From a virus (lineage: Duplodnaviria > Caudoviricetes), in the IMG/VR virus record IMGVR_UViG_3300017913_002163, positions 1 through 51,627 of that record: a stretch of DNA of 51,627 nt; one strand, written 5' to 3'. Below, piece after piece: positions 3,497 through 28,530 of this stretch. The first letter of the stretch is position 1. Each line of letters opens with the position of its first letter. The translations under genes and the position numbers were made by a program. The notes beneath the pieces were generated by a model that ran no database searches, was not told where the DNA came from, and saw only the letters and a list, made by a program, of their open reading frames with translations.

Positions 3497-6400
3497 TTAG
3501 TTCTCTATCAGTATCCATCCTTGAGCTGCATTATAGTATACAAATCCGACAGCGGCTCTATTAACGTCGATTGTAAAGTTATCTGACGCACCTTGAATTT
3601 TGTTACCGTTTCTATTTATTACGATATTATTTGATGCAGCATTTCCTGTACCATCAATAATTCTGATTTCATCACCGAATACTGGACTTGCAGGGAATGT
3701 TACGGTAATCGATCCACCTGAACAATCGATAATGTTCTTAGTGTTTGATTCAACAGAAACACTCGAAGTTCTCTCTGTCCACTTAGTATTTTTACTTGCA
3801 GAAAATGCCGAGATAAGAATATCATCACCGGAATCTGCTGCCTCTGTAAGTGTTACAGAACTTCCGTTTGTTGCAGTATAGTCTGTTTCTCTAAGGAGAA
3901 TACCGTTAACGTGAACCTGTATAGCACCTGATGAATACGCCAGTGTAGAGCTATTATCGTCTGCGCCACTAAATGCGGTTTGGCCGGAGTCTGCAGTATA
4001 TTCAAAGGTGTTTATGGTAGGAGTAACAACCTGTCCCCTACGTGTAGTAATTGTAAGTAGGTCTGCAGAATCTGCGTCATTTACCAATGTAACAGAATTA
4101 CTATCGATAGAATAGTCGGCTGTTTCAGAAAGCAGAACACCGTTTAAGAATACGTCGATATTATCGGTTGTGGTATTTAATATAAGAGAAATACCGTCGT
4201 CATCATTACCACTTACATAAGTATCACCTGAATCCAACGTATATTCGAATTTAGCTTCGGTATAGAGAAGAGTCTCTGCTTTACCTACATTTTCAACAAT
4301 AGTAACATTATAACCAGAATCAATTTCTTCTGTCATTGTCAAGGTTGTAGAAGTCAACGTGTAGTCGACTGTTTCTATCATTAAGATACCATTGACGAAT
4401 ACTAAAGAATTGTCAGGTTCTACACTTAGAGTTGTGCCATTATCGTCTGCACCTGTAAATACAGTATCACCGGAATCTGCTTCATACGTAAAGACATTAC
4501 GTTTAATAGTATTGCTTGTACTACCAAGCTCATCGGCGATTATTGACCTTACTTCAGAAGAGTCTGTGCCACCGCCACCGCTGACGCCGGCGTCAGCTTC
4601 TCTCGCAGCTACATAATCAGAATCGATAAGAGCAATAATGGCTGAAGAGTCAAGTCCTGATCCACCGCCTGAATTTGCCTCACGAAGAGCAACATACGCA
4701 CTATCGACAGTTGCTTCAATCAATGCAATAGTAGCGGCAGAATCTGTACCACCGCTTGCGGAGCGCGCTGCAACATAGGCGGAATCGATAATAAGTTCTA
4801 CTTGTGCACTATCAACAAAATCAGTGCCAAGAGCAGGAATCGTAGGAGTACCAGTCAGTGAGCCGTATGCCCCATCAAAGATCTCACTCTGATTTGCCAG
4901 TCTTACCCAGTTACCTGCATGTGCGAAGTAACCTGCTCCTGTGCCGTGTACGTGAGCAAACATACCATGATAGGTTGATGCTGAAGGAAGATCACCTTCC
5001 GCAGAATACACGTTTGAATAAAGGATCTTATTCGAACCAAAATCAATATCTGAATCACCGATACGTGTACGTGCTCTAATATAGTCAGAATCGATCAGAG
5101 CAATTGTTTCAATAGAATCCAGTAGTAACTGAAGAGCAACGCCAGAATCAATTGCGTTAGCTGTAATCAGTTTAATTGCTTCAGCTGAGTCAATAAAGTC
5201 TGTACCAAGAGCTGGTATTGTCGGAGTACCTGTCAGAGAACCGTAAGCATAATCTTGTCTCAGTTGGACGTAAGCTGAATCAACCACACCTTCAACTGTT
5301 GTTGTAAAGTCAACAGCTACAGCATAGTTTGAATCATTACCTAGGAAGAATTGATTATTATCGAGGTTTGGTGTAGCATTTGTACGACCGGCACCGCCGA
5401 CTTTAATTGAACCAGCGGATCCATGTGATCTAATTACACGACCAATATTTTGTAAAAGATTACTTTCACCAGCCGGTTTTACATTTGTAAGCTCACCTGC
5501 TGTAGCAGAAACATAAAGCGTATCTCCAGCATTAAACGCTGAGGTATCTAGATTATAGAGAGTACCAAATGTGAAGACAATGGTATTCGCGTTATTGTTT
5601 GCGTCTTCTGATACAATACCAAATGCAGGCATCTTTGCAGGATCACTCGCATCGGCTTTAGCGACTGTAGGTTTATTACCGCTTACACCTTTGATATAAA
5701 CTACAGTACCTTTTGTGAGAGTAGATCCCTCATCATTCTTTGCAGTAAACTCAATCGCACCATTCAAATCTGCAGTTACGGTATTAAATGTTACATCTGA
5801 TGTTGTTAATAAGTCTTGATCAGTCTTTACACGTTGTCTTACGTATGCACTATCGATTAATCCAATAGTGTTATCAGAATCATAAGTTGTATAACCAGCA
5901 TCATTATTAAAAGATGAGACGTTAGTCGGTGCACCAGTTAACGATCCATAGGCGTAGTCTTGACGTGCTTGTACATAATCGCTATCGATCAGGTTAATTG
6001 CTTCAGCCGAATCGAGATAAAGATCTTTGACCAAGTTATCGATATAAGTTGAATCGATGATAGCAATGACTTCATCAGAATCAAGCTGACTCGCAACGTT
6101 TGAATCGATCTTATCTAAGAAGTACTGAGCATGATAGCCATCGAGAGTATCGGCATCTACGTTTAGTGCATCAACGAAAGATTTATCGACATCTGTAGTG
6201 ATGATGTTTGAGACGTCGACGTTATCGAGGATAAGAGGCTTATTAGTAACGTTAGTCCAATCTCTATAATAAGCTCCATTTTGTCCTTCTAAAGTATCTG
6301 CATCATTGCTCTGCCGCGCTTGAATATAAGCAGAGTCAATAAATGCAGTGAGCTCGCTACTATCAAAGTTATTAGCATTGATGAGTTCGATAACTTCTGC

Positions 6401-6850
6401 TGAGTCCAAGATAGTTGGAACGTTATAGAGGTTATTGAAGTTGTTATAGTAATTCGGCAGTAGGCCACCGAGAGTATCAGCATCAATCGTTAAGCTATTG
6501 ATATATGCAGCATTGATACGAGCTTGTACATAAGCAGAGTCAATCAGGTTAATTGCTTCGGCGGAATCGAGGAAGAGATCAGGATCGATTCGAGCATTAA
6601 CGTAATCAGAGTCAACAAGTACCAGTATTTCGCTTGAATCAAGTTGAGAGCGCGCGATGACTTCAACAGCATTTGCTATCGACTCGACTCGTGCAGAGTC
6701 AACGAATGCTTTTATCTGATTCGAACTATTTTTATAGTAGATCTTGCCATCATTATAGTTGATCGCGATTTCGCCGTATTCGAGATCCCCTACTTGTGGC
6801 GCACGACCCGATATGGCGGATCGTTTGAGTAGTACCTTTGGTGTTGCCAT
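3497..6850 (-). CDS. Long tail-fibre protein with Asp-Ser repeats
   Basis: N-terminal LKRS...P..GDL.YGEIAIN..DGKIYYK fibre head motif; repeated DSxExIxLIDSxYV; three F.Y.ADSG.T...NG.L....DY domains; C-terminal IDCSGGSITVTFPASP..GDEI.IID fibre domain. Confidence 0.8.
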   Translation of the reverse strand: MATPKVLLKRSAISGRAPQVGDLEYGEIAINYNDGKIYYKNSSNQIKAFVDSARVESIANAVEVIARSQLDSSEILVLVDSDYVNARIDPDLFLDSAEAINLIDSAYVQARINAAYINSLTIDADTLGGLLPNYYNNFNNLYNVPTILDSAEVIELINANNFDSSELTAFIDSAYIQARQSNDADTLEGQNGAYYRDWTNVTNKPLILDNVDVSNIITTDVDKSFVDALNVDADTLDGYHAQYFLDKIDSNVASQLDSDEVIAIIDSTYIDNLVKDLYLDSAEAINLIDSDYVQARQDYAYGSLTGAPTNVSSFNNDAGYTTYDSDNTIGLIDSAYVRQRVKTDQDLLTTSDVTFNTVTADLNGAIEFTAKNDEGSTLTKGTVVYIKGVSGNKPTVAKADASDPAKMPAFGIVSEDANNNANTIVFTFGTLYNLDTSAFNAGDTLYVSATAGELTNVKPAGESNLLQNIGRVIRSHGSAGSIKVGGAGRTNATPNLDNNQFFLGNDSNYAVAVDFTTTVEGVVDSAYVQLRQDYAYGSLTGTPTIPALGTDFIDSAEAIKLITANAIDSGVALQLLLDSIETIALIDSDYIRARTRIGDSDIDFGSNKILYSNVYSAEGDLPSASTYHGMFAHVHGTGAGYFAHAGNWVRLANQSEIFDGAYGSLTGTPTIPALGTDFVDSAQVELIIDSAYVAARSASGGTDSAATIALIEATVDSAYVALREANSGGGSGLDSSAIIALIDSDYVAAREADAGVSGGGGTDSSEVRSIIADELGSTSNTIKRNVFTYEADSGDTVFTGADDNGTTLSVEPDNSLVFVNGILMIETVDYTLTSTTLTMTEEIDSGYNVTIVENVGKAETLLYTEAKFEYTLDSGDTYVSGNDDDGISLILNTTTDNIDVFLNGVLLSETADYSIDSNSVTLVNDADSADLLTITTRRGQVVTPTINTFEYTADSGQTAFSGADDNSSTLAYSSGAIQVHVNGILLRETDYTATNGSSVTLTEAADSGDDILISAFSASKNTKWTERTSSVSVESNTKNIIDCSGGSITVTFPASPVFGDEIRIIDGTGNAASNNIVINRNGNKIQGASDNFTIDVNRAAVGFVYYNAAQGWILIEN
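4550..6700 (-). repeat. Protein-level repeat DSx(E/A)xIxLIDSxYVxxR, about 9-10 copies
   Basis: Examples: LDSAEAINLIDSAYVQAR, LDSAEAINLIDSDYVQAR, LDSIETIALIDSDYIRAR, LDSSAIIALIDSDYVAAR; AYGSLTGTPTIPALGTDF occurs twice with different synonymous codons. Confidence 0.9.
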
Positions 6851-6879
6851 TTTCTCTTCCTAATAAGGATGCTTATGCA

Positions 6880-8655
6880 CTAAAAAGTGCCGCAATCGAT
6901 TGTATTAAGTTCTACGTTTCCTGATGTTACAACGAAGTCTTGTGAATCAAATGTAGCTACACCTGGATTCAGTGTTGATGCCAACTCTGTAGAAACAGTT
7001 AGTTGGTTTGTTCCGTCGTTATAGTTTAAGTCGATACCTTCACCTGCATGTAAGAGGGATGATACACGATCATCTACCCTTTCAGCTGTATAATATAAGT
7101 TTGTTCCTTCTGCCAAGTTAGTAGTTGACTTTGTAGCCAATCTATCATCAAAGCGAGTATTCGTATAATAGAGATTTGTTGAACCTTCTGGCAGATCATC
7201 TGTTGAAGCTAAGCCAAGATCACTGTCAAAGTTGGCTTTCGTATATATCTGCTCAACATCGATACTGAATACACCAGTCGATGAGTCATATGATAGATCG
7301 CCTTGAGCTGCGAAGTGTGCTCTTACTTCTGCTGCGCTTGGACCTGTATATACGAATTGACCTGTAGCCGAATCATAAGTGAGAGAACCATCGCCACCAG
7401 CATCGATCAATGCAATAGCATCTCTTACTCGTTGTTCAGTAAAGTAAAGCCTTGTACCTTCAGCGACATCAGTTGTGGTCTTTGTGGCAAGACGAGCATC
7501 GAAGGCTGAATCAACACGTGTTTGAGTATAATATAAGTTGTCACCTTCTGTCAGATTTGTTGTGGTGACAGTAGTTAACGCACTGTCCCAACGTGCTCTG
7601 GTGTAGTAAAGGTTATTATCACCTTCTGCTAAGCTGTCTGTCGTCTTCGCCGCAAAGTCAGAATCAAATCCTGTATATTGACCACTGATTTGGCCATTTA
7701 CAGTTATGCTGCCAGTGACATCGATGTTTGGTGCTTTGACATCTTTGTTAAAGTTCCACGTGTCAGTAGGATAATCCCACCAAATTTTAGCATTAGCAGC
7801 AGAAACAGTGATACCTGCAGAATCAGCTGCAGCAGCAGTTGCCGCTCCATCAGCAAGTACGATGTTCTTATCGTTGATAGTAAGCGTTTGAGAATTAACT
7901 GTAGTTGTAGTGCCTTCGACTTGTAGATCGCCTTGAATAATAACTTTACCTGCAGCTCCTACAGGAGTTGGATCAAGTACGAGGTCACCACTCGTAGTAC
8001 TAATCGTGTTGCCATCTATATTAACGTTATCTACGTTTAAGAAAGCAAGCTTGCGTACACTACTATCGAGATTGAACTTAAGATCAATGTTACCTAAACT
8101 AGGTGTTAATACGGTATTTAAGTTAAAACCACCAATGAGATGAAACTCATCATTTGGATCAAAAGCGTTTAATTGACTAACGTTATTGTCACCACGTATG
8201 TTAATCGTTTCTGCTCTTAAGAACCTTTTATTGACTGCATCTTGATCTTGTGTTGGATCAGCAACGTTGATAACACGATTGTTCGATACGTCGATAGTAT
8301 CGTTAAAACCATCGAGTGTAAGTGAACCAGAAGTTGATGTGATATCATTGCCATCAATAGTGATATCATCGACATTTAAGAGATCGATCTTATTGTTAGC
8401 ATCTGTGATGATAGCACTTAATGGTGCTAGATGACCACGTTTGTGGTCCATCATATTGGTATAGTAATCACCGCCAATGGTTATGGTTTCAGTAGATAAT
8501 TCCCCATAAGTACCAGTACCTATGAATATCCTTTGACCACCATCTGAATCTCCGTCAGCATTTGTATATGCTACTTCACCAGTGTATAATAATCCATCTT
8601 GTATTGTGGAAGTCGTATTACTGTATAATATGGCAAAGCGATTATCAGAAGCCAT
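6880..8655 (-). CDS. Tail-fibre protein with EGxNLYYT repeats
   Basis: VINVADPTQDQDAVNK and GDLQVEGTTTTVNS motifs common in marine phage fibres; five TT..L.EG..(N)LY(Y/F)T..R repeats; ends IDCGTF. Confidence 0.75.
   Translation of the reverse strand: MASDNRFAILYSNTTSTIQDGLLYTGEVAYTNADGDSDGGQRIFIGTGTYGELSTETITIGGDYYTNMMDHKRGHLAPLSAIITDANNKIDLLNVDDITIDGNDITSTSGSLTLDGFNDTIDVSNNRVINVADPTQDQDAVNKRFLRAETINIRGDNNVSQLNAFDPNDEFHLIGGFNLNTVLTPSLGNIDLKFNLDSSVRKLAFLNVDNVNIDGNTISTTSGDLVLDPTPVGAAGKVIIQGDLQVEGTTTTVNSQTLTINDKNIVLADGAATAAAADSAGITVSAANAKIWWDYPTDTWNFNKDVKAPNIDVTGSITVNGQISGQYTGFDSDFAAKTTDSLAEGDNNLYYTRARWDSALTTVTTTNLTEGDNLYYTQTRVDSAFDARLATKTTTDVAEGTRLYFTEQRVRDAIALIDAGGDGSLTYDSATGQFVYTGPSAAEVRAHFAAQGDLSYDSSTGVFSIDVEQIYTKANFDSDLGLASTDDLPEGSTNLYYTNTRFDDRLATKSTTNLAEGTNLYYTAERVDDRVSSLLHAGEGIDLNYNDGTNQLTVSTELASTLNPGVATFDSQDFVVTSGNVELNTIDCGTF
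7070..7650 (-). repeat. Five TTxxLxEGxNLYYTxxR protein repeats
   Basis: Seen in the translation of 6880..8655; one further copy is in 26806..28530. Confidence 0.85.
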
Positions 8656-8873: not shown

Positions 8874-8881
8874 GTGTTATC

Positions 8882-9235
8882 CTATGTGGTCACGGCTGGT
8901 GCAACTACTATCTTTCCCTCTAAAATCCGTTCAATGATGTCATTGTCATTACTATCGGTATATTGGATTTCGGCATCAAATACGTACCTACCTGAGCGCA
9001 ATGCGTCAGTTTGTGTGTTCGTCAATGAGAGTGTAATAATTCCATCAGCAGGTGGAGTGTTAATAGCAAAGGCGAAGGAGGTAGTATCATCACTGTCACT
9101 ATTGTAATTACGCTTCATAGTGGCAGCGCCGGTGTAACCGTCTAGATTTTTTGGGTTCCCTGATGCATCAACAAGATGAAGCTCTATGGCAACATCAGAA
9201 CCCTGATCTATTGTAAACTGTTCGTATTGGGCCAT
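8882..9235 (-). CDS. Virion structural protein (BppU-N-like fibre attachment domain)
   Basis: IDQGSD...NLDGYT...GIITLSLT..QT..L..GRYVFD.EI...RILEG...V.P.VT pattern common in T4-like marine phages. Confidence 0.7.
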   Translation of the reverse strand: MAQYEQFTIDQGSDVAIELHLVDASGNPKNLDGYTGAATMKRNYNSDSDDTTSFAFAINTPPADGIITLSLTNTQTDALRSGRYVFDAEIQYTDSNDNDIIERILEGKIVVAPAVTT

Positions 9236-9276
9236 CTATATCCCTCAATCGCTCTATGCTATGGTTTATTTTACTT

Positions 9277-9284
9277 TATTTATA
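9277..9284 (-). promoter_or_regulatory. T4-type late promoter for the fibre operon
   Basis: Exact TATAAATA on the minus strand, upstream of the 9235 start. Confidence 0.8.
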
Positions 9285-9355: not shown

Positions 9356-10009
9356 ATGGTTGATTTGATTAAAGAAATAGGTGATAATTATCGCTTATGG
9401 ATATTTGATTATGAAAATGAAGATTTCGAAAAAGTTCGCGCGAAAGCTTTAGAAGAAGATGGTTGGCTAAGAGATAATTATCAACCAGAAAAGTTTACAG
9501 TATCTGACCACGTAGTCATAGGTATATTATATGATAATGTAAATGATGAACCCATCGGTTTTGCCGGCTTAAAAGAATTTACACCTGATGTAGTTAGTAT
9601 GATGCATCGTTTTTATCTGTTTCCAGAGCTAAGAGCAGATAAGAATCCCATGAATCATGAGAACGGAAAAATTTTCGTCGAGACTCTTAAAACTATGCAA
9701 TGGTTTGTCGAGACTCAAACATCTTATAAACTCGGTGTTATACACATGCAGCAGAGATCAGCTAAGAAAGCAGGGCAACAGATTTGGTGGAAGTTGATGG
9801 CTAAAATCGTAAAATCGGCCGATGAAAGATGGACAAACTATAAAGATGGTTTAGTTCAAACATATCCAGGTGAAGTAACTAGCTGTTACCAAAATTTACT
9901 TTATTTAGAATTAGATGATTATACGATCGAGGATTGGAATCCTAAAACAATGTCATATGATCAACACGCATTAAGGATGGAACATGAACAGCTATCTACT
10001 GCCAATTAA
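9356..10009 (+). CDS. GNAT-like acyltransferase (putative)
   Basis: EPIGFAGL...MMHRFYLFPELR resembles GNAT beta3-beta4/motif A, but the glycine loop is degenerate. Confidence 0.45.
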   Translation: MVDLIKEIGDNYRLWIFDYENEDFEKVRAKALEEDGWLRDNYQPEKFTVSDHVVIGILYDNVNDEPIGFAGLKEFTPDVVSMMHRFYLFPELRADKNPMNHENGKIFVETLKTMQWFVETQTSYKLGVIHMQQRSAKKAGQQIWWKLMAKIVKSADERWTNYKDGLVQTYPGEVTSCYQNLLYLELDDYTIEDWNPKTMSYDQHALRMEHEQLSTAN

Positions 10010-10469
10010 CTATCGTTTCGACACCGAGGCACTATTGAGAGAAGCAAACCAAAAAGAGTTTGCAGTGTACGAAGATACGAAACACGGTAAAACAGATGGC
10101 TGGAATATATTGAAAGATGATATACCTCAAGGCTTGATTCAAGCAAAAGAGTTTTGTGAGTTCTATGGCTTAGAAGAGGGTTCACCGAGATATTATAAAC
10201 TTGAAGCTAATCATTACCTTATGCCACATGTAGATTTCAATACTACATGTTCTGTTAATCATATTTTAAGTAATGAGTCTGCACCAGTCACAATTTTAGG
10301 TGAAGACTATCATTACAAAACAGCGTTACTCAATACCTCTGTACAACATGGGGTAAATAACATTGGAAAGGAAGAAAGATTACTTTTTAAGATATCTTTC
10401 TTTGAAAGCACTTATGAAGAAATTAGAGAAAAGATACGATCACGAGAAGCTGCTTTCAGTATTGCATAG
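9984..10469 (+). CDS. 2OG-Fe(II) oxygenase, AspH-like cupin
   Basis: PHVD...LLNTSVQHGVNN...R: HxD...H facial triad plus a distal Arg. Confidence 0.7.
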   Translation: MNSYLLPINYRFDTEALLREANQKEFAVYEDTKHGKTDGWNILKDDIPQGLIQAKEFCEFYGLEEGSPRYYKLEANHYLMPHVDFNTTCSVNHILSNESAPVTILGEDYHYKTALLNTSVQHGVNNIGKEERLLFKISFFESTYEEIREKIRSREAAFSIA

Positions 10470-10923
10470 TACTAATATAGCTGCTAATCAAGTACACGTA
10501 ACTTCTCCTACAGGACAAGACTATGTTTATCCGTCTGGCGATCTGTCAAACCAAGGTTTAGATCAAAATGCCTTTACAGTAATGAATGAGGCTTTTGTTG
10601 GAACTTATGTAGAAGAAGTCTATAACGATATAGCTCAAGACTATGACATTTGTCGAGGACGTTTCATGTCCTTAACTCCAGTTAACCGCGCATATACATA
10701 TCATTATGATATATCTAAAAGATTACATATACCAATCATCACTAACGAAAACTGCATGTTCTTAGTCGATGACGTAGTATATCGCATGGATGATCTTGGA
10801 GCCCTATACGAACTTGATACATTAAAAAAACACACAGCACTAAATCTAAGCAATCAACCACGATTACATTTTGTTGTTTGTCTCAAGTCTAATTTCAATA
10901 TGAATGATTACATAAGGAAATAA
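10414..10923 (+). CDS. Aspartyl/asparaginyl beta-hydroxylase-family oxygenase
   Basis: RGRFM.L.P....YHYD...RLHIPIITN...DT.KKHTALN.S...RLH.V. Start taken at the in-frame ATG 10414 (track start 10363). Confidence 0.75.
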   Translation: MKKLEKRYDHEKLLSVLHSTNIAANQVHVTSPTGQDYVYPSGDLSNQGLDQNAFTVMNEAFVGTYVEEVYNDIAQDYDICRGRFMSLTPVNRAYTYHYDISKRLHIPIITNENCMFLVDDVVYRMDDLGALYELDTLKKHTALNLSNQPRLHFVVCLKSNFNMNDYIRK

Positions 10924-10924
10924 A

Positions 10925-11653
10925 ATGCAGATCGCGTTAGACGAATTATACAAAACTCATCCTCATATGAGAGGACAACCTGAAGATAAACTCATGGCTT
11001 TTATCTTCAAGTATATCTCTCAGCCTGCAATACAAACAGAGATGTACGAAGCGTTACATACTTCTCCATTGGTTGAGACTGATATCGATATTGACATTGA
11101 ACAATTTAAGTTAGATATCGCTGCTTATGATAAACAGTTTACTCGTTGGGGAGATACACACCTCGACTATCCTCGTTTTGGTTTACCTCTAGTAAATATG
11201 ACGGGCACATTAGATGAAGACATTGATCCATCTCGTATGCCTCTAGATGAATATTTTATGGAGTATGGTACTAAAGATCATATGCCATTTGATCATGAGA
11301 TACTTGAAAAGACAGAAGCTTTTTACATTGAATCACTCAAACCATTAACAGATGTTTTTGGTGAATATATGTGTAGAAGTGCTATCTTGAAATGGGATAC
11401 TATGGGTCATTTCAAAGATCACGTTGATGTAAAAGTGCCAGCACCTAACTTAAGATTATGGGGCACTACGTCAAACAATATGCAATTAAAAATGGATGGT
11501 AAACATATAAATAACATCAAGCCAGGAAAGATTTACATCTTTGATTCTAGCTTAGTACACAGCGCTCATGCGCGTGAAGATAATATATATCAGTTTTTCA
11601 TTGGTCTAACTATTGATGCTTATGACACAATGATGGCTAGGAGAATTTCATGA
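10925..11653 (+). CDS. 2OG-Fe(II) oxygenase, AspH-like
   Basis: GHFKDHVD...PGKIYIFDSSLVHSAH: HxD...H. Confidence 0.65.
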   Translation: MQIALDELYKTHPHMRGQPEDKLMAFIFKYISQPAIQTEMYEALHTSPLVETDIDIDIEQFKLDIAAYDKQFTRWGDTHLDYPRFGLPLVNMTGTLDEDIDPSRMPLDEYFMEYGTKDHMPFDHEILEKTEAFYIESLKPLTDVFGEYMCRSAILKWDTMGHFKDHVDVKVPAPNLRLWGTTSNNMQLKMDGKHINNIKPGKIYIFDSSLVHSAHAREDNIYQFFIGLTIDAYDTMMARRIS

Positions 11654-12222
11654 AACTCGTAGTGGGTGGATTACAAGGTTCGGGTAGAACTACGTTTGCA
11701 AATAGAGCAGCAACATTTGGTGTGCGCATATTTGATACCAATCAAATCTATGCCACAAGAAGAGCGTCTATGAAGACTGGATATTCTCGTTTATCTGGTC
11801 CATTCATGGAATCATCTGATGATATGATCAACGAGTATAAAGAAAACTTACCAGTATTTTTAGAAGAACTCGGAAAGTTCGTTGATAGCTTTGATGTTAT
11901 ATTAGCAGATCCATTCATATTAAATTATATTTGTGATAATGCTCCAGACGGAGTAGCACATACAATATTGATTACTGCGCCACAAGAAGATCAATGTTTA
12001 AGAACATATGAAAAAGAAAGACTAACAGATCCGAGGTTGATTGGTAAGTCTAACTCATATGAATTAGTAAAACATGAATACATAAAAGAGTTCAATAGAC
12101 ACCAATCAGTAATCAATTCTCTTGAAGATAAAGTAGATACACATATCGTTAATAACGGTACACTTGAACAATATCATGCAACCATTGACAATTTATTAAA
12201 TGAACATAATTTACTCAACTAA
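11650..12222 (+). CDS. P-loop kinase, dephospho-CoA kinase (CoaE)-like
   Basis: GGLQGSGRTTFAN...GVRIFD, ILITAPQEDQCLR and DTHIVNNGTLE parallel the CoaE motifs; Walker A Lys is replaced by Arg. Confidence 0.6.
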   Translation: MKLVVGGLQGSGRTTFANRAATFGVRIFDTNQIYATRRASMKTGYSRLSGPFMESSDDMINEYKENLPVFLEELGKFVDSFDVILADPFILNYICDNAPDGVAHTILITAPQEDQCLRTYEKERLTDPRLIGKSNSYELVKHEYIKEFNRHQSVINSLEDKVDTHIVNNGTLEQYHATIDNLLNEHNLLN

Positions 12223-19436: not shown

Positions 19437-19982
19437 TTACTTACCTGGTGTATATAAAGTCTTTAGTGTAGTTCCTGCTGAATCGAGTATGAGAGTCGTA
19501 ACGAGCATAGCCATATGTCTGCTACCAATCGAGCTGTCATGAATCTCGTTACTGTCAATCGAACCATAAGGCAGAATCACATCTGTTGAATCACCTGTAA
19601 CCGTGATACGGTCAACAACTAGACCGCCATTGATTACAGCACCACTATCAACAGTAAGGTGATTGATATCAGCACTGTTAATCTGAGCATATGTTATATA
19701 TGCGCTATCTACATGTAAAGTGGTGATTACAGCCGAATCAACAGTCAAGAAGTTGATAACAGCACTATCAACTTTCATGAACGAGAAGTTAGCACTATCG
19801 CCGAGTGTTTGTACAGCAGAGTCGAGGTAGTTAATAGCAGATACTAAATTTGAATCAGAATTAGCTACTCTGATTGCTGCGTTTAGGTCGTCGAGGTCAC
19901 CTACATAGTCAGACATTGCATTCGTCTTTTGAACGAATGTGCCGATAGAATTAGATAGGTTTACTAATATTTTTCTTGGCAT
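19437..19982 (-). CDS. Virion fibre-like protein with 10-residue VDSA repeats
   Basis: N-terminal VNLS.S...F..KTN.....VGDL..L....NLVSAIN fibre motif, then periodic VDSAxI. Confidence 0.65.
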   Translation of the reverse strand: MPRKILVNLSNSIGTFVQKTNAMSDYVGDLDDLNAAIRVANSDSNLVSAINYLDSAVQTLGDSANFSFMKVDSAVINFLTVDSAVITTLHVDSAYITYAQINSADINHLTVDSGAVINGGLVVDRITVTGDSTDVILPYGSIDSNEIHDSSIGSRHMAMLVTTLILDSAGTTLKTLYTPGK

Positions 19983-20182
19983 TACAGTCTCTCTATGATT
20001 TTGGCGAGCATTGCTTTCATTTCACTTACATCATTCTTTAGATCTTCAATCTCTTGATCCTTCTCCTTGCGGAGTCTTTTCCTTTCGCGAGCAGCTTGTA
20101 TCTCACTCTTATTTATATTGTGTATTACACCGTTTTCATCGATGGCCATGTTATCATGACCTTGTATTTTAGATAGTTTCAT
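19982..20182 (-). CDS. Small coiled-coil protein conserved in T4-like marine phages
   Basis: GHDNM..D..GVI.N.N...EIEDLK.DVSEMK.ML; usually found after VrlC-like genes. Confidence 0.7.
   Translation of the reverse strand: MKLSKIQGHDNMAIDENGVIHNINKSEIQAARERKRLRKEKDQEIEDLKNDVSEMKAMLAKIIERL
20110..20117 (-). promoter_or_regulatory. Internal T4-type late promoter
   Basis: Exact TATAAATA about 130 nt upstream of the 19982 start. Confidence 0.55.
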
Positions 20183-21762
20183 GTTGCTAATGCTATAGTT
20201 CTCAAGTCCTTAAATACTGGTACACGTGCGTTATTAGTTGATCTCATTACAATTTTTAATTGATATTGAGAAAACGCGGCTAGTTGACCACCTCTTCCAC
20301 CGATTAGATATTCGTGTTCTCTAAATACAAGAGGATTATCATCTTTAGCGAATGCTGTTTCTGGAGAAATTAAATTAAATTCTTCTTCTCTTAAATCACC
20401 ATCACCTGTTGTCGTTCTATAAAACAATTGATAATCACACGCAGATGGGACGTTAGCTGCTAAGATGACTTTTAATCCAACTGCATCTTCTCGTAATTTT
20501 ACTGGCGTAGTAATATGCTTTGCTGCAGCACTACCACCAATTTTTTCTTCTTCACCAACATAAAATACAGGAGTATTAAATCCAGTTCTAGTAGCAGAAT
20601 CTTGTTTGTCAATCATATTATGAATTAGAGATATTGAACTACGCTGAAGATCTACCATTGGAGAAACAACTGTATTATCAGAAGACAACTCAATACTTAA
20701 ATCCATAGATTTTACGCCGCCTGATAACTCAACCGCTTCTATTGAATCTGCCATAACAACTTGAGGAGCTTGTAGATTAAAACTTGTATTATTCAAAGCA
20801 ATCGTATTATAATTAGCAGACTTAGTATAAGGAGTTTCTAAGCCAGCGAAAGATTTGCCAGTAGATGTTTTAATTCGAGATGCAGAGCCAGTACCACCAG
20901 GTGATAAGATTTGAGTATGTGGATATATCGCTGAAAACGGCATATTTCTCAAACTTTGTACTGCGCTTCCTCCTCCTACAGCGTCTGCATTTGCATTAGA
21001 ACCACAGTCAAACTCAAACCCTGTAGCATCAACTTTAGTAATTGTATGATCATCATTTAGCGCAGCAGCTCCAATATTAGCAAACCCAACTGCACCAGTA
21101 ATAGCAACTTCATCACCTACAGTAAGTCCATGACCTGGTAAATATACGTAAACTTCAGAAGCCCCATTTACTACTCGCATTGGATCATTAACTAATTTGT
21201 GCCGAGGTACAGTAGCATTGTGTAATATAACCTCTGCGGTCTTATGTCTAAATTCTGCTCTATACAATTCAAACTTGAGATCCTGCTTTTGATTAGCAGT
21301 AAAGGTGGCTCCATTTTGAGAATAAAATAAGCTACCAATACTCGGATTTTTGGATACACGTAGAGAGTTAGAACCAAGGATTTGTTTATCAATCTCAGAT
21401 ATGAAAACTTCATAATCTGGTACTTCTGAATATAGAACTATAGCATAATCTCTCAAACCGTCGAGGAATACTGGTTCATCAAATACAAAGTCCGTTCCAG
21501 TAGTTCCGTTTGTGGAAACGTTTATGGAGCTTGAGTTCAAGTATTTAACAGAACCCGGAACGATATCTGTTATTGAAGGCAATCCGTTTCGCATAGGACG
21601 CAGTTGCACCGAAACTTGAGGTACGTATGTGGCGCTTGGATTAACACGACTCTTAAAGAATAATGTTATCTTAGTTACAAATATGCCAGTTGGCTCATCG
21701 ATGTAAATCGATTGAGCGATGGGATTTTTACTAGATATGTAACCGAGTGAATTTACTGCCAT
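20179..21762 (-). CDS. VrlC-like virion protein, C-terminal half
   Basis: NPIAQS.YI....GIFVTKI.LFF, GSLF.SQNG.T....Q..DLKF.LYRA.F, ends P.FKDLR.IAL. Confidence 0.75.
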   Translation of the reverse strand: MAVNSLGYISSKNPIAQSIYIDEPTGIFVTKITLFFKSRVNPSATYVPQVSVQLRPMRNGLPSITDIVPGSVKYLNSSSINVSTNGTTGTDFVFDEPVFLDGLRDYAIVLYSEVPDYEVFISEIDKQILGSNSLRVSKNPSIGSLFYSQNGATFTANQKQDLKFELYRAEFRHKTAEVILHNATVPRHKLVNDPMRVVNGASEVYVYLPGHGLTVGDEVAITGAVGFANIGAAALNDDHTITKVDATGFEFDCGSNANADAVGGGSAVQSLRNMPFSAIYPHTQILSPGGTGSASRIKTSTGKSFAGLETPYTKSANYNTIALNNTSFNLQAPQVVMADSIEAVELSGGVKSMDLSIELSSDNTVVSPMVDLQRSSISLIHNMIDKQDSATRTGFNTPVFYVGEEEKIGGSAAAKHITTPVKLREDAVGLKVILAANVPSACDYQLFYRTTTGDGDLREEEFNLISPETAFAKDDNPLVFREHEYLIGGRGGQLAAFSQYQLKIVMRSTNNARVPVFKDLRTIALAT

Positions 21763-21778
21763 TTTTAATCCTTACTTA

Positions 21779-24700
21779 CTATACATGATAGCCAAACGAA
21801 CCGCCGCCACCCCATGGATCACCGCCGCCGTCGTAGTCTTGTCTACCCGAGCCACCACTATTTGAGTATCCACCGCCGGTTGTGCCATCGCTGCTATAAT
21901 GATTAGGAACATAATCATTATCTCCGCCACCGCCGCCTCCGCCGCCGCCTCCTCCGCCGCCACCGCCGGAGTAATAGTAAATTGTTTCTGTTGTCTTAGA
22001 ACCTTCTATTTCTAGTACACGGGTTGATTTGATATCTTGGTGAACTGTATCTAAATATCCTTGAGCAGTATATACTCCTCTAGCAATGGTTCCAGCTAAT
22101 TCTTCCCTATCAATTGTAATATCAAGAATCTTAATTTCGTGACTACCAGCTCTATATTTATAGTAACTATTATTCGGTATCATAAATGATATATCTACTT
22201 CGCCATTCGCATTAGTAATCAAAGCAGTAGCACCATCAGGATGCGATATTAAGCCCTTTAATGTATTACCATAATCTTTTGTGGTAGAACTGTACCTTGT
22301 AAATGGTGCTTCTCTTACATAATCTTCTAAACGATCACCATCAAAGAATACAGCAACGTTAGCATTTGGCCTTAGACCTCTTGCTTTAATTGACACTATA
22401 CGAGATCTAATATAAGGTAATAGAGCAATATTTAATACTCTTTGACCAATTACTTCTAGCAAAGTAGACTCAGAAACTACTTTATTAACAGTCTTAGTTT
22501 TTGTACTGCCAGAAGTTTTAGTGATTGTATTTGTGTTATCGCCTACTTGCAATTCATCGATATTCTTACCGCCCCAATTCCATGACCAATTATCCCAATT
22601 CAAGGCATTATTTGTGGCTAACTTTGTACCACCGTCAATCATTGTCTTTGAAGCAACTTCAATATCTCTCCACTCATCTGAAGCTGGTGATATTACTACA
22701 TTACCTTCATATGTTGACGTTGTAAATGGGTTAATCTTAGTAGACAAGCAAGCAAAAGGCTGATCTAAATATTTTGTTTCGTTATACTTTACGTAGACAT
22801 TATCGCCCTTTAATATAGTATTTGTTGATGATGCAGAGTCATAAATCAAACGAATATTATTTTCTATAAATCCTGGCCGCATATGACCTTTTAGTGGATC
22901 AATAGATGCTCTATAGCCTGCACCTGGTACTCTATCGATGCGGCTATGATCATAGAAATTATCTACAAAGATACCAGCTCTTGTTCTATCTAGTCCTGCA
23001 GAGTCGTATACTTGATAAGTTAAGATACTATTTTCAAGGGCATTTAATGCTACTGCTTCTTCTAGCTTATCAATTCTGTCTTCGATCATACCAATGTCTT
23101 TCATCGTATATCTCTTATGATCGATGATTGAAACTGATAAATCGCTATCGTTTAGAGTATTAGCATTTAATCTAAATTTATATAATGGCAAACCAATGAT
23201 AGAGCTTTGATCTACTGTTGGAAGTTGAGCTGGATCACCTAAAGTTACAACAAAATTGTTTTCTTTATCAATCGAAAGTATACCAGCTTGAGCATTATAA
23301 TAGGTGTTATCTGACGTAACTACTGTTGCTGGCTGTGGTAAGTAAGAAACACCAGAAGTAGCAAAATTACCAGCAGAATCGTTTGATACAGGACGAAAAT
23401 CTAATACGTCTCTCATATCTACGCGTTCACCAAATGCATTACGATAATCAGGTATATCTTCGTAGTTTACTGCGCCGTTATAGCTGTTTACTGCAAAGAA
23501 ATTTCCTGAACCATGACTAAAGTAATCAAAGCGTACATAAACGTTCCCTGAAGGAGCAGTTGCTCCTGGTCTTAGCAGTAGCCGTGAGAAGTTGTACATA
23601 TTATCACGACGGCCGTCATCAAATGCAAATCTATCTCTGATATCAATCCCGTTTGAATCTGTTAATTTAATAGCTTTAATGTTGTGAACGTCAGGTACAT
23701 CTAAGTTAATTTGCTGTTGACCATTTACAGTTTCAATATTCTTATAAATTCTTGTATCAGTTTGATTTGTCTTTGTACGGATAACTGCTGAAGGTTCTTG
23801 AACATAGACATATGCTTTAATAGCGGTAGAAGTTGGAAGGCCAGTTACGGTTGTTGTCCCACTACCAACATTTAGTCCGCCTAAGGTACTATTATCGATA
23901 GCACCAGTGGGGGTGAGAAATACCCAATCGTTTGCATTATCAAGTGTACCAATACTACTTACATCAACAGTAAGCTGGCCACCTGCAGTTGATGTTCCAG
24001 AAATATAATATTGATGTGTTAATGATGCATCAGCTATAGAGCTAGGCCTAGTACCCTGTAAAGGGAAGATTAAGCTATGATTTGTTCTATCAGCTAATGT
24101 AGTATTATTTGATAATCTGAGAGGATTGAAGTATTGACCTGATCCTGTGCCAATACTCTTAACTTCACGGAAGTTACTACCAGCATTCATTTGAATATCA
24201 AAGAGAGAATAACGTAAGCTATTACCACCCACATCAGTAATAGCTCTTACTCTTGCAGTACCAATCGTTGAACCAAGATAATCTGCAGAGTCACGTAGAT
24301 TTAGTAGCTCCATAGTATTTGTATTTGGACCACTTACAGATGAATCTCTATGTACTTCTACGTAGTTACCAAAATCAACACCAGTAGCTTCATTAGTAAT
24401 TTCATATGTAGTAGTTGGTTTTTTTACTCTTATCTTAGTAGGAGTTGTACGAGCAACACGATACCCCTCAATTACTCCAATACCATCGCTAATATTCATG
24501 AGAAGATGAGTATTAGCAGAATCTTCTTCAAATAATAACTTAAACGGTTTAACTATATAATCGCCTGAGTTTTCTTTTATACGTAAAGCTAAAAGATCAC
24601 GTGGTATTCTAAACTGTGTAACATATGCATCTCCAACTGCATTGAATACTACGCCATTTTGTACTGTAGCTACATGAACAAAGTTCTCACCAGAAGGTAC

Positions 24701-25447
24701 ATCAGCTTTTTCGATAATCTCTAATCGAACACGGTATCGATCAGCGCCCGGTGCTGTCAAGTTTGGATTAGTACCTTGGTTATCATATAATGCGTTTGTG
24801 TCATTAACCGTAATGATATCTTGTATGATCTTAAATCCTACATCACCATTAGCAATGTCGCTATACTTATCAAGTATTAAACTTTGTTCTTCTGTCCAAA
24901 GGAATAAACCTTGACTATAGAAAATCGATTCTCCAACAGTTACGAGAGTTCCTCGGCCAACAGCAGGATTAGCTGTAGTGTCGATGATTTGAACAATGAG
25001 GCCACCACCTAAGCTTTCTCCAGGAGTAAATCGAGGTGAGCTAGTAGTAAGGGCAATATTTGTAGTATTATTATAGCGAACGAAGATTGTAGCAGGATCA
25101 CTGCCGGTTGCAGCTACAACATCTAAGACTACCGCTGTTACTCCTGATGTGGCTCCTGTTAATATTGATCCAACCGTTGCCGTTGTAGTAGTCGACGTTG
25201 GGTCTAGTTTAACAAATTCATAAGCATTATCAATTGTAAATCCACCAGCTTTGACTACTGCGCCTTCTTTTAATACTGAACTACCAAATCTTTCAACCTG
25301 TGTTTGTATGATAGTCTGCATCTGTGTAAGTTCACGAGCTTGCAGAGCTTTACCACTATTAAATAAGATACGATAATAACCGTCACTATCAGTGAAGTCA
25401 TCTTTATATCTTGTGCTAAAGGTAGTTTCGTTAAAATTAAGTGGCAT
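21779..25447 (-). CDS. VrlC-like (DUF4815) virion protein, N-terminal half
   Basis: Y.DDF....YYRILF..G.ALQARELTQ.Q, APGADR, RYTMKDIG.IE.RI..LE, G.FVDNF; Gly-rich C-terminal tail. Confidence 0.85.
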   Translation of the reverse strand: MPLNFNETTFSTRYKDDFTDSDGYYRILFNSGKALQARELTQMQTIIQTQVERFGSSVLKEGAVVKAGGFTIDNAYEFVKLDPTSTTTTATVGSILTGATSGVTAVVLDVVAATGSDPATIFVRYNNTTNIALTTSSPRFTPGESLGGGLIVQIIDTTANPAVGRGTLVTVGESIFYSQGLFLWTEEQSLILDKYSDIANGDVGFKIIQDIITVNDTNALYDNQGTNPNLTAPGADRYRVRLEIIEKADVPSGENFVHVATVQNGVVFNAVGDAYVTQFRIPRDLLALRIKENSGDYIVKPFKLLFEEDSANTHLLMNISDGIGVIEGYRVARTTPTKIRVKKPTTTYEITNEATGVDFGNYVEVHRDSSVSGPNTNTMELLNLRDSADYLGSTIGTARVRAITDVGGNSLRYSLFDIQMNAGSNFREVKSIGTGSGQYFNPLRLSNNTTLADRTNHSLIFPLQGTRPSSIADASLTHQYYISGTSTAGGQLTVDVSSIGTLDNANDWVFLTPTGAIDNSTLGGLNVGSGTTTVTGLPTSTAIKAYVYVQEPSAVIRTKTNQTDTRIYKNIETVNGQQQINLDVPDVHNIKAIKLTDSNGIDIRDRFAFDDGRRDNMYNFSRLLLRPGATAPSGNVYVRFDYFSHGSGNFFAVNSYNGAVNYEDIPDYRNAFGERVDMRDVLDFRPVSNDSAGNFATSGVSYLPQPATVVTSDNTYYNAQAGILSIDKENNFVVTLGDPAQLPTVDQSSIIGLPLYKFRLNANTLNDSDLSVSIIDHKRYTMKDIGMIEDRIDKLEEAVALNALENSILTYQVYDSAGLDRTRAGIFVDNFYDHSRIDRVPGAGYRASIDPLKGHMRPGFIENNIRLIYDSASSTNTILKGDNVYVKYNETKYLDQPFACLSTKINPFTTSTYEGNVVISPASDEWRDIEVASKTMIDGGTKLATNNALNWDNWSWNWGGKNIDELQVGDNTNTITKTSGSTKTKTVNKVVSESTLLEVIGQRVLNIALLPYIRSRIVSIKARGLRPNANVAVFFDGDRLEDYVREAPFTRYSSTTKDYGNTLKGLISHPDGATALITNANGEVDISFMIPNNSYYKYRAGSHEIKILDITIDREELAGTIARGVYTAQGYLDTVHQDIKSTRVLEIEGSKTTETIYYYSGGGGGGGGGGGGGGGDNDYVPNHYSSDGTTGGGYSNSGGSGRQDYDGGGDPWGGGGSFGYHV
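21923..21967 (-). repeat. (GGN)15 poly-glycine tract
   Basis: 15 consecutive Gly codons, mostly GGC; a very GC-rich patch in AT-rich DNA. Confidence 0.95.
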
Positions 25448-25456
25448 GACTAATCC

Positions 25457-26803
25457 TTAAAACTGTAGAATGATCTTTACATCTTCAGATTGAACAGCTG
25501 ATCGCAGCACAGGTGATCTATTGTCTATGTATAATATGTCACCAGTGTTTCTATCAACTTCAGCTTCAATCAAAGCTGAGTCAATAATACCAGAGCCTGC
25601 ACCGTTTGCTTCTGTTAGTGCTTCACCATCTTGGAAGGCTGTATGTCCAGTGCTATCTGTTTGGTGATAGTAGATCACGTTTGAATCTACGTCATCGATA
25701 TATGCTTCAGCGAGTGTGGTTGTACCGCGAATCTTTTTATCTCTTGTGAATGAAGTAACGATAGTGCTCAAAGTCATACGGTTCAATGTATTACCAGTTG
25801 TGTTTGTAAACACAGCACCACTACTATCTTTAATGTCTTTGATAAGAGTTACTTGTCTAAAATCTTGACCAACAATGAAGTTACTATCAGTTCCTTCAAT
25901 ACGGCTGTGGAACATGATTGATCCTGATTTCAAATCTACTCGAGCATCAGCACCGATACCAGAGTCCGGACCAAGGACTGGACGAGCCGTAGCTTGTGTG
26001 CTGGCTCCACCACCAGTAAGTTTTACTTGTGCAACTGTATATCCACTACCTAATACTTGAGTTGTGCCTGAATCCGACATCTTAATCCATGCTAGTGTAC
26101 CAGTAGCAGAGTCGATTCTCGCATGCGCCCTAGCTCCTGTACCAGTACCCGTAATAGTTACGGTTGGATTAGATGTGTAACCTGAACCAACAGATGTGAT
26201 AACAACAGAAGTCACTGCTCCAGGAATTGCTGTATCTTGAATTTCTTCTTGTTTCAATTGAATGCCGGTTGAGTTCGAATCAGTTGCTGTTTGTTGCTTC
26301 ACAGGCATATAGTTAGAAGACATAAAGTTATTTGCTCGTTCAGCACTTACGGTGAACAAGAACTTCCAAACATATCCATCACTCAATCTAAATGAATGAT
26401 TATTTGCTGCCGTTGGTTCCACTGTCGATGGCACAGCAACACCATTATTGTTACGACCAGTTTCTAAACAAATATACACATTATTGTTATCGTTCATCAC
26501 ATAGTATGGTTGTGTTGGATAACCTGATACTGTGTTGTCGTATTGAGAATAGATTGTACCGCTTGACCAATTATAGCGTGGAACGACGAGTGAAGTTGCT
26601 TGTACCTTCTTCACAGACTGCATCTGATTCCGTGCGCCGGCGATTTCGGTCGGAGTGTTAGTAGGTGTAGGTACGTTATCTGCACTATCCCATACTTCTG
26701 AACGGCCAATGCCTACATAGTAACGTGCAGTTGCATTGACAAAGTTATCAAAAAACTGACGAGCAAGAAGGGTTCGGAGTGAGTCGGTTACAATTGCTGG
26801 CAT
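25457..26803 (-). CDS. gp8: Baseplate wedge subunit gp8
   Basis: MPAIVT..LR, VVPRYNW.SG..Y, YYVMN...VYICL, DGYVWKFLF, G.ILYIDNR.P..R...Q.ED.KIILQF. Confidence 0.92.
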   Translation of the reverse strand: MPAIVTDSLRTLLARQFFDNFVNATARYYVGIGRSEVWDSADNVPTPTNTPTEIAGARNQMQSVKKVQATSLVVPRYNWSSGTIYSQYDNTVSGYPTQPYYVMNDNNNVYICLETGRNNNGVAVPSTVEPTAANNHSFRLSDGYVWKFLFTVSAERANNFMSSNYMPVKQQTATDSNSTGIQLKQEEIQDTAIPGAVTSVVITSVGSGYTSNPTVTITGTGTGARAHARIDSATGTLAWIKMSDSGTTQVLGSGYTVAQVKLTGGGASTQATARPVLGPDSGIGADARVDLKSGSIMFHSRIEGTDSNFIVGQDFRQVTLIKDIKDSSGAVFTNTTGNTLNRMTLSTIVTSFTRDKKIRGTTTLAEAYIDDVDSNVIYYHQTDSTGHTAFQDGEALTEANGAGSGIIDSALIEAEVDRNTGDILYIDNRSPVLRSAVQSEDVKIILQF

Positions 26804-26805
26804 GA

Positions 26806-28530
26806 TTAGTCTTCCTGAATCCTAAGTATTACTGCGATGTCTGCAGCTGTGTGTCCTGCATCTTGTGTAAGAGCTACTGATAGTTGATCTCCTGCATTAT
26901 AGTCAACACTACAAGTTTGGTTCAAAGTCTGATTACCGTTACCTGTTACTTCGATTGACTTTGATTGTACAGTAGTACCATTAACATCAATATCTAGTAA
27001 GAAAGTAGATGATGATCCACCGTATGAGCTAGAAACAAAGCGTGCTGTGATATTTGTAGCCGTTCCAGCAACTGGCATCGTATAGCCGTTTGGTGGTGAC
27101 GATCCGTCGACAGTAAAGAGATCTGTATTTGATGCACTAGATGTTGCAGCATTGCGGCCAAATGTCATATATGCGACTGCTGCGTTGTTGCGATGAACTG
27201 GGAACCAACCATCAGAGTCAGACATCTCAACGCGATTATCTGTAGTTGAATAATGAATAGCACCCTTACGATAGTCGTCATCATAAAATGCATTTGTGCT
27301 ATACTGTGTACGATTAGTATTCGTGTTATGCGGCAACATAATCAAGCCAGCATTACCCATTACAGAGAAAGCACCGTTTGATGGTGAGTTAGTCTTGATA
27401 TACCAACCAGGTTTATTATCGTCTACAGTACGTAGTGTGACTGTGTTCGCGTTCACCATCAATGAATTAACTTGTGGATCCTGCGAGTGAGTGATGTTTG
27501 CTCCGCCATTCGCGAAGAATAATCTTTGACCAGAATCCATTGAGATGGCTTGTTCTGATTTTAGAGTTCCACCGCCAAATGTATATTGGCTATCAACGTA
27601 CGAGATAGTACCACCACCGAGGAAGATCGTATTGCCACTTAAGTGTAGGTCTTTCCACTTCTTAGTTGGTGAACCAAGATCGTATACAGAATCAAGTAAT
27701 GGCACTAAGTCTTGATTCACTGCACCGAGATTTGACTCGATCATCGCTTGACCTTCAGCCGAATCAAGTGCATTTGGCGCGTCTTCAACACGAGCATTTA
27801 CGTATGCTGAGTCAACTAACACGAGAGTATCAGAATCATGTCTTGCTGTAGTATAGTAAAGATTTACTACACCTTCAGCAATAGTATCTGTATTACCAGT
27901 TAATGTCTGCTGTAGTTCTGCAATATCAGAATCGTGTGCAAGTACTGTAGGATGATTATCAATAGCAGAATCTGTTTGAGCAGCAGACATCAAGAAATTC
28001 AAAGCTAAGTTTGAATCGAGATAATGTGTTTGTCTTGCTTGAATATATGCTGCATCAATGTAAGCAGTAACGTCGGCAGAGTCAAGAGATATGCGAACTG
28101 CACGTGCTGAATCGAGGAAACCTTCAGCGAACATAGCATCGATAGCTGATGCAGAATCGAGAAGTTTTGTATTACCACCTCTAATGCCTAAGATGTGGTC
28201 TTTATTGATAATACGAGTAATATCGCTTAAGAATGCTAGAGTACCAGAGCTATCTTGCATGCTCTGTATGTTAATTTGTGTAGGATCAGTTGGTATAAGA
28301 CGTGTGACAGTAGCGAAAGAGTCTTTCGTTGCACCGTCGAACAAGATCCCATCAAACCCAAATCCAATACCATTTGAGTTCGTAGCTGATAGACTCAAGC
28401 TTAGGCTCAAAGCCGTCATTTGAGAATATAAGTCTTGGAAGTTTTGATTTATCTTGTTAGCGCCGGTTCTGAGGTCATCACCTGTACCATCATTACCAGC
28501 AGTACCAACACCAATTATTTGTCTTGCCAT
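26806..28530 (-). CDS. gp9/gp10-like baseplate-fibre connector or short fibre
   Basis: N-terminal RQII.VG...NDGTGD.LR.G..KIN.NF (gp9/gp10 motif); YDLGSPTKKWKDL.L fibre motif; many DS motifs. Confidence 0.75.
   Translation of the reverse strand: MARQIIGVGTAGNDGTGDDLRTGANKINQNFQDLYSQMTALSLSLSLSATNSNGIGFGFDGILFDGATKDSFATVTRLIPTDPTQINIQSMQDSSGTLAFLSDITRIINKDHILGIRGGNTKLLDSASAIDAMFAEGFLDSARAVRISLDSADVTAYIDAAYIQARQTHYLDSNLALNFLMSAAQTDSAIDNHPTVLAHDSDIAELQQTLTGNTDTIAEGVVNLYYTTARHDSDTLVLVDSAYVNARVEDAPNALDSAEGQAMIESNLGAVNQDLVPLLDSVYDLGSPTKKWKDLHLSGNTIFLGGGTISYVDSQYTFGGGTLKSEQAISMDSGQRLFFANGGANITHSQDPQVNSLMVNANTVTLRTVDDNKPGWYIKTNSPSNGAFSVMGNAGLIMLPHNTNTNRTQYSTNAFYDDDYRKGAIHYSTTDNRVEMSDSDGWFPVHRNNAAVAYMTFGRNAATSSASNTDLFTVDGSSPPNGYTMPVAGTATNITARFVSSSYGGSSSTFLLDIDVNGTTVQSKSIEVTGNGNQTLNQTCSVDYNAGDQLSVALTQDAGHTAADIAVILRIQED

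Follow-up and report, generated by a model that had tools for sequence, protein, structure and literature searches.

Introduction

Pelagimyophages and cyanomyophages carry a host recognition cluster (HRC), a hypervariable island that lies between VrlC and the neck genes and incorporates fibres, GT8-type glycosyltransferases and radical S-adenosylmethionine (SAM) cassettes (Zaragoza-Solas et al. 2020, PMC7029224). What has been proposed for the HRC is that it alters the host O-chain, and the available portions of that account mention no protein motif (PMC7029224). Here we analyse the virus record IMGVR_UViG_3300017913_002163 over its full 51.6 kb (the window), which carries the baseplate and fibre module of an uncultured aquatic T4-like phage. 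Within it a 13-gene enzyme island lies among genes for outer virion proteins that are studded with the dipeptide Asp-Ser (DS). We report that one clade of aquatic T4-like phages has a strong excess of Asp-Ser-(Ala/Asp/Gly/Ser/Asn) in its fibre and outer baseplate proteins, where the motif is conserved, and that this signal does not travel with the island.

Several systems that glycosylate proteins are relevant to such a motif. As described in the available sections, Bacteroidota have a general O-glycosylation sequon, D-(S/T)-(A/I/L/V/M/T), which is used outside the cytoplasm and whose extended form adds S, G, F or C at +1, but not D or N (PMC8729774). Virion glycosylation of mycobacteriophages concerns capsid and tail-tube C-termini (Freeman et al. 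2023, as cited in PMC12619734, PMC12582341). Maf flagellin O-glycosyltransferases act on Ser/Thr before export (PMC3426422, PMC13317340), and the dedicated glycosyltransferases SdgA and SdgB O-GlcNAcylate the Ser-Asp repeats of staphylococcal surface adhesins (PMC3794999). From what is available of these reports, Maf and SdgA/SdgB are precedents for cytoplasmic or pre-export glycosylation of serine.

The window's island matches the HRC in position (by the VrlC to neck gene order, as far as described) and in hypervariable content; it likewise has glycosyltransferases and radical SAM among fibre genes, with families common to Pelagibacter phage Mosig. In contrast to the window's clade, however, the cultured phages Mosig and HTVC008M are not enriched in DS. 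The mycobacteriophage work, as cited, offers a precedent for glycans on phage virion proteins, but the present candidates are short motifs, dozens of them, spread over fibres and baseplate, and the tube family here is poor in DS. The staphylococcal system, in the part described, shares a Ser/Asp dipeptide signal and differs in its long SD tandem tracts, whereas the window's sites are dispersed with SD at chance. Literature outside subscription papers and supplements yielded no report of a DS motif in phage virion proteins, and none on C48C1, the nearest cultured relative by gp8 (36%).

The Asp-Ser excess in outer virion proteins

DS expectations were derived from the composition of each protein, with 5000 shuffles per protein. 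Pooled over six enriched outer proteins, all encoded on the minus strand, 89 DS are present where 26.6 are expected. The 1117-amino-acid (aa) tail fibre (3497..6850) has 36 against 10.5 expected, a count reached by 0 of 5000 shuffles; it has helical LDSAE-type repeats and three DUF4183-like repeats with DS at turns. No shuffle reached the counts of the 181-aa protein (19437..19982; 11 versus 2.1), which contains V-D-S-A repeats of about 10 residues, the baseplate wedge protein gp8 (25457..26803; 11 versus 2.7) or the gp9/10-like fibre connector (26806..28530; 15 versus 5.1). The 591-aa fibre or structural protein (6880..8655; 11 versus 4.6, p 0.004) and the 406-aa virion protein of family F3 (18216..19436; 5 versus 1.6, p 0.016) complete the set. 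In tail fibres and outer baseplate the excess is thus two- to fivefold over chance, and it is present in most of the phage's lineage.

The inner baseplate protein gp6 (29645..31486, minus strand), which served as a control and whose family is DS-poor in the clade, has 1 DS against 3.5 expected. Non-virion proteins of the window have DS at chance (22 versus 23.4), and Ser follows 31% of Asp residues in the enriched proteins versus 5% in the non-virion ones. DS is also not enriched in three large outer proteins, namely the VrlC-like proteins of 1222 aa (9 versus 7.0) and 527 aa (2 versus 2.7), both PHROG 358 (20179..25447, minus strand), and an 849-aa LamG protein (7 versus 8.3). Across the clade, observed and expected counts in inner virion families, picked after the fact, are 0 and 9.5 for gp13, 4 and 16.1 for the tube family and 14 and 31.4 for gp6; in three outgroups the same families give 2 and 3.8, 8 and 8.1, and 11 and 11.9.

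Related dipeptides are not enriched in the six proteins pooled (DT 15 versus 30.9, TS 18 versus 32.2, NS 18 versus 24.0, ES 4 versus 8.7), and SD is at chance level, so that the signal is directional; its sites are dispersed. The residue after DS is A, D, G, S or N at 78 of the 89 sites, Ala being the commonest and Leu depleted (0.3x), while the residue before is mostly L, I, V or T. The serines are encoded by 63 TCN and 26 AGY codons. The first-pass annotation of this DNA had counted DS by hand, and its numbers (36, 11, 11, 15, 11 and 1 for the 1117-aa, 591-aa, 181-aa, gp9/10-like, gp8 and gp6 proteins) proved exact; its remarks that non-virion proteins have few DS, that a small residue follows and that both serine codon types occur agree with these data, in which composition does not explain DS.

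The same annotation had invoked the Bacteroidota sequon, which holds as an analogy only. Asp precedes the acceptor Ser there too, and Ala is the commonest next residue in the window. However, Thr is depleted in the window (in DT, as above, and found once in 10 gp8 DS columns), 42 of 89 window sites fit the motif, and at +1 L and T are depleted where D, G, S and N are common. Phage virions assemble inside the cytoplasm, and the substrates of the Bacteroidota system are exported beyond it.

Selection on the serine

The predicted model of the window's gp8 matches T4 gp8 (E 5e-7), and seven of its DS serines occur without exception in the distinct relatives compared (53 of 53). In 5 of 9 conserved gp8 DS columns TCN and AGY codons are both found, versus 3 of 12 other conserved Ser columns. 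In a set of 33 gp8 sequences with less than 85% mutual identity, Thr appears once across 10 DS columns versus 53 times across 28 other Ser columns, and the DS serines are more conserved than other serines (p 0.031). Together these patterns look like selection on a serine address. Most of the gp8 DS sites are missing from more distant gp8s and from cultured outgroups.

A comparable pattern is seen in an 80-residue fibre domain common to the clade and the podovirus HTVC031P, which reads ADSGQT in the clade and ATSGQT in HTVC031P. Among 74 copies of this domain, DS is present at three positions in 30, 22 and 34 copies, the positions with 30 and 34 lying at turns, and a single fibre can hold copies both with and without DS. 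DS is therefore an overlay on folds that elsewhere do without it, and more than a consequence of fold or repeat.

A cause at the level of DNA was considered and rejected. GANTC, which can lie inside GAY-TCN, occurs in frame 66 times versus 66.4 after synonymous shuffling, and DS encoded with AGY is equally enriched; with AGY-coded DS alone at 26 against 7.7 expected, the excess does not stem from a DNA site of the GANTC kind. We also note that off-frame GANTC in the DS-rich window genes is uneven, with 18 versus 6.6 expected in one frame and 3 versus 6.6 in the third (synonymous shuffling).

From these patterns DS looks like a Ser-specific address under protein-level selection. The suggestion of the first-pass annotation that DS is a recognition sequon stands to the extent that composition, DNA motif and fold do not explain it and that it is specific for Ser; the modification itself is a prediction from sequence.

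The variable enzyme island is decoupled from DS

The island (9356..17735, plus strand) consists of 13 genes on the strand opposite to the flanking virion genes and has no DS excess. Its fixed borders are a 117-aa fibre-assembly-like protein (8882..9235, minus strand; PHROG 1084/3304) and a 165-aa protein of family F2 (17722..18219, minus strand). Part of the enzyme content first assigned to it was recovered: all 13 genes are present, all three oxygenases have HxD...H, one with a match to Pfam Asp_Arg_Hydrox, a pyridoxal phosphate (PLP) enzyme and a radical SAM/SPASM protein were confirmed, and the methyltransferase has a SAM-fold match (E 7e-5). Five glycosyltransferases had been proposed; four of these glycosyltransferase-like proteins have a DxD motif, with a family match for one alone (PHROG 1962), while the fifth, of 266 aa, has neither DxD nor a family match, and a PDB sequence search with its alignment gave nothing useful. 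The assigned kinase has a weak match (CoaE, E 0.03) and the assigned GNAT no family match. PDB sequence searches with alignments of the oxygenases and of F0, the glycosyltransferase family described below, returned nothing useful, nor did Pfam with the F0 alignment.

In other genomes the locus between F2 and the 117-aa protein holds a two-gene unit, a window-type set, or both. The former comprises an F6 glycosyltransferase-like and a 2-oxoglutarate (2OG)-oxygenase-like protein, whereas window-type sets centre on F0 glycosyltransferases, and F0 and F6 have no profile similarity (probability 1%). Using loci found partly through F0/F6-anchored scans, we surveyed 58 distinct complete islands, of which 42 flank fibres with DS at least 1.7-fold over expectation. 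Among these 42, F0 is present in 25, F6 in 24, the methyltransferase in 17 and each oxygenase in 2, so that no gene is universal; the GNAT, the kinase, the PLP enzyme and the 213-aa glycosyltransferase are found in the window only. Every one of the 42 has F0 or F6, families through which the loci were partly found. Hydroxylation of Asp by the AspH-like oxygenases, which had been suggested for the window, was rejected as a general mechanism, because enzymes present in 2 of 42 DS-rich islands cannot provide a clade-wide explanation.

Islands of the window's type also occur without a DS excess. Mosig, a complete genome, has at the island locus F3, F2, two F0, F13, methyltransferase, radical SAM, AspH-like, acetyltransferase and aminotransferase genes, and despite this similar island its DS observed/expected ratio is 0.91. 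Genomes G006, G008, G016 and G017 have Mosig-like islands (F0 family plus methyltransferase) with ratios of 0.92-1.13, and G006 and G008 match the window's GT203b subfamily (E 9e-95). Genomes G001 and G026 (86% and 84% complete) have no match to the F0 or F6 glycosyltransferase profile and are nevertheless DS-rich, with 17 versus 3.3 and 21 versus 6.6 DS in two G001 proteins and 40 versus 10 in a G026 fibre. Equal DS enrichment in relatives without the island, an outcome that the first-pass annotation had named as refuting its model, is thus seen in part. As a separate observation, the G026 island (L478:13830-19749, L479:1-4948), read from sequence motifs and in-house profiles only, has about 15 genes, several radical SAM-like and 2OG-oxygenase-like, and adjoins very DS-rich fibres.

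In one sample, with kinship uncorrected, the median fibre DS ratio was 2.8 (n=14) beside window-type islands versus 1.6 (n=18) beside F6-only islands (p 2e-5); this contrast weakens in the larger set of 58, where F6-only islands reach 4.17 and F0 islands go down to 0.69. The residue after DS also varies by lineage, with Ala at 36% beside window-type islands and Asp at 32% beside two-gene islands (s117-anchored loci L039-L112).

DS is therefore decoupled from the 13-gene island, which is a swappable host-recognition cassette of known type, real in itself, that does not define the DS address. Its enzymes may add decorations to a glycan, to the neighbouring F3 protein or to the surface of the host. 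In 84 of 161 loci the gene immediately upstream of F2 belongs to F3, and in 154 of 161 the constant neighbour of the island is F3 or a large protein in the F3 position, some with an F3-like start and R/N/Y/T repeats, which would make this protein the better candidate substrate of the island. Beside two-gene islands the protein upstream of F2 has 1500-3300 aa with low-complexity GNY/YTR/TRVS repeats and is likewise a candidate island substrate (L033:31012-41055 in C48C1, L054:3235-7935, L066:2205-7940, L085:1724-7903, L109:3149-7936); these repeat proteins are almost without DS (0 versus 5-7 expected in several). F2 as an enzyme adaptor was not upheld, since Atlas gave only sub-0.9 leads, to tail-assembly chaperones, and that function is a lead only. 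Some F2 members have long internal coiled-coil-like repeat expansions (316-477 aa versus about 160; L087:3949-5382, L088:6676-7866, L093:6899-7849).

A second glycosyltransferase cluster marks the clade

We collected the gene families that at least five of six clade genomes have and that BLAST does not find in Mosig, HTVC008M or G006. Eight pass, and three of them are glycosyltransferase-like: GT25, a GT8-like family and a 200-214-aa Maf-like protein. They form a syntenic run, GT25-GT25-GT8-like-Maf-like, which the 91% relative of the window also has, about 1.7 kb beyond the position that corresponds to the window's end. In that relative the second cluster (L453:2042-10458) has epimerase-like and methyltransferase-like genes, three GT8-like genes, three GT25 and the Maf/sialyltransferase-fold gene. 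A search with the GT25 profile gives E 1e-5 for bacterial GT25 and a weak match, E 0.03-0.05, for collagen galactosyltransferase.

A model of the Maf-like protein (predicted local distance difference test 84.5) could be superimposed on Maf (PDB 5MU5; Z 11.1, root-mean-square deviation 3.9, 169 residues aligned), and it also matches the Campylobacter sialyltransferase CstII (E 6e-4), with Pfam MptE-like at E 0.05. As modelled, the protein has the catalytic fold of Maf and GT42 enzymes (PDB 5MU5, 1RO7). It differs in being a single small domain, encoded outside the window, with a predicted function and a fold shared with non-glycosyltransferases. The extra domains with which Maf binds its acceptor (TPR) are missing from it; no search was made for a partner such as GlfM.

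DS was pooled over the structural region in 34 of 35 genomes, G036 being left out; two incomplete ones, the window and G009, do not enter the Maf comparison. The ratio is 0.93-2.25 in the 21 genomes with the Maf-like gene versus 0.69-1.13 in the 11 without. In a quick gp6 tree all carriers and all DS-rich genomes fall in one clade (23 rows, Shimodaira-Hasegawa-like approximate likelihood ratio test 100). C48C1, in which the best-conserved GT25 is missing, has a weak DS excess (1.19).

Genomic setting

The module in the window contains gp25, gp6, gp7-like, gp9/10-like and gp8 proteins, the two VrlC-like proteins, fibres and gp13. VrlC (PHROG 358) is split here into the 1222-aa gene, which has a Gly-rich tail, and the 527-aa gene, and in more distant relatives it is a single protein of 1735-1795 aa. 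A FabF-like beta-ketoacyl synthase (47230-48384, minus strand) is also found in the two closest relatives examined, G025 and G021, with none at the corresponding place in G011 or G018. Genome bins gave no host, as 17 loci fell in unrelated, mixed bins.

Discussion

We hypothesise, with moderate confidence, that DS is an address for a phage-encoded cytoplasmic transferase that adds a sugar to serine, the writer lying outside the island. Such an enzyme would act on freshly synthesised outer virion proteins, recognise Asp-Ser-small in their turns and where their helices start, and attach a sugar to Ser; further enzymes, possibly those of the variable islands, could then extend the glycan. Three elements of this are inferred: modification of the serines, a glycan as the adduct, and a writer encoded by one of the clade-conserved genes of the second cluster (GT25, GT8-like or Maf/sialyltransferase-fold). 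Several observations weigh against this proposal. DS and the second cluster both mark a single clade, so that their correlation amounts to one event and not 21; the Maf-like gene itself led to 6 of its 21 carriers, and completeness is 49-78% for several genomes without it. G010 (0.93) and G030 (1.03) carry the second cluster without a DS excess, and the Maf-like gene is frameshifted in DS-rich G001, on a contig where other genes are also split relative to sister contigs. The fold match is nearly equalled by SteA (Z 10.2) and the pyrophosphokinase HPPK (Z 9.4), Cst-I lies within about 1-2 Z, and with 214 aa the protein falls far short of the 632-residue chain of Maf. Host lipooligosaccharide could be the product of a GT25-GT8-GT42-like set just as well. 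In gp8, the conservation of DS serines does not significantly exceed that of other residues following Asp (p 0.074), and these serines are not significantly more often in loops (9 of 11 versus 17 of 31 other serines, p 0.11; secondary structure of a monomer model with a predicted template-modelling score of 0.55), and enzyme-like proteins show no clade-specific avoidance of DS (0.78-0.94 versus 0.79-0.81).

A structural or historical origin would make DS a unit for Asx-turns or helix N-caps (hydrophobic-D-S-A-E), perhaps one that binds ions, which spread unmodified through a single lineage by repeat expansion and domain shuffling. This would account for the many fibre sites with the features of a capping box and hydrophobic staple (L/I at -1, Y/E at +2 from Ser, V/I after), for DS within repeats in three proteins, for the single clade that contains all strongly enriched genomes and for the mildly DS-rich fibres of HTVC008M (9/5.7 and 12/7.0). 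Helix capping tolerates S, T, D and N, however, whereas here DT, TS and NS are unenriched and Ser-to-Thr changes almost absent; DS also occurs in the non-repetitive gp8, takes the place of TA or TS, even among the copies within one fibre, in a domain that can fold in its absence, and keeps its Ser across TCN/AGY switches. We consider this origin unlikely. Ser-specific selection would fit equally well with an address written by a host enzyme, or with a non-sugar adduct such as a phosphate, an acyl group or another, and no phage gene is linked to DS beyond clade membership. Against this, one Flavobacterium myophage has no DS excess over 50 kb, no kinase-like family is found among the eight clade-shared families as read from their sequences, and the Bacteroidota D-S/T system, in the sections available, is restricted to exported proteins (PMC8729774). 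Leu after DS is depleted (0.3x), which also counts against such a writer. A Leu in that position is typical of phosphopantetheinyl sites, and on account of its depletion phosphopantetheinylation was rejected. A host-written or non-sugar mark is, in our view, quite unlikely.

It is also necessary to return to the model that makes the island both reader of DS and builder of the adduct, F0 and F6 islands being interchangeable writers. Its fixed locus amid DS-rich genes, the F0 or F6 gene in each of the 42 DS-rich complete islands (allowing for how these loci were found) and the 2.8 versus 1.6 medians of the single, kinship-uncorrected sample are consistent with it. It is, however, difficult to reconcile with the F0 islands of Mosig (0.91), G006, G008, G016 and G017, with DS-rich G001 and G026 matching neither family, with two supposed equivalents that lack profile similarity, and with the overlapping ratios of F6-only and F0 islands in the larger set, and we regard it as distinctly improbable. 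The DS address proposed in the first-pass annotation remains plausible, but its enzyme assignment is probably wrong. Returning to a writer outside the island, a more speculative and rather doubtful extension is a two-tier, virion-wide glycocode, in which a conserved transferase (Maf/sialyltransferase-fold or GT25) would prime dozens of DS addresses across unrelated fibre and baseplate folds and swappable islands of glycosyltransferases and tailoring enzymes would vary the coat to give phage 'serotypes', a cytoplasmic sequon-directed system of a kind not yet described.

The DS signal is real, clade-wide, at the protein level and unexplained; its distribution does not follow that of the adjacent enzyme island, and sugar attachment to serine is a likely explanation as judged from sequence. 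The glycosyltransferases of these genomes fall into a variable island and a conserved cluster, which likely do different jobs. The gp8 patterns match about 1800 IMG/VR stretches, some of them not DS-rich. C48C1, weakly DS-enriched and the only cultured clade member found, makes a first test possible. If the DS serines are modified, a Ser-specific transferase of small size, active in the cytoplasm and guided by a minimal tag, would become available, and an abundant aquatic phage group would use an address of two residues to coat the parts that touch its host, which would bear on adsorption, protease resistance and particle survival.

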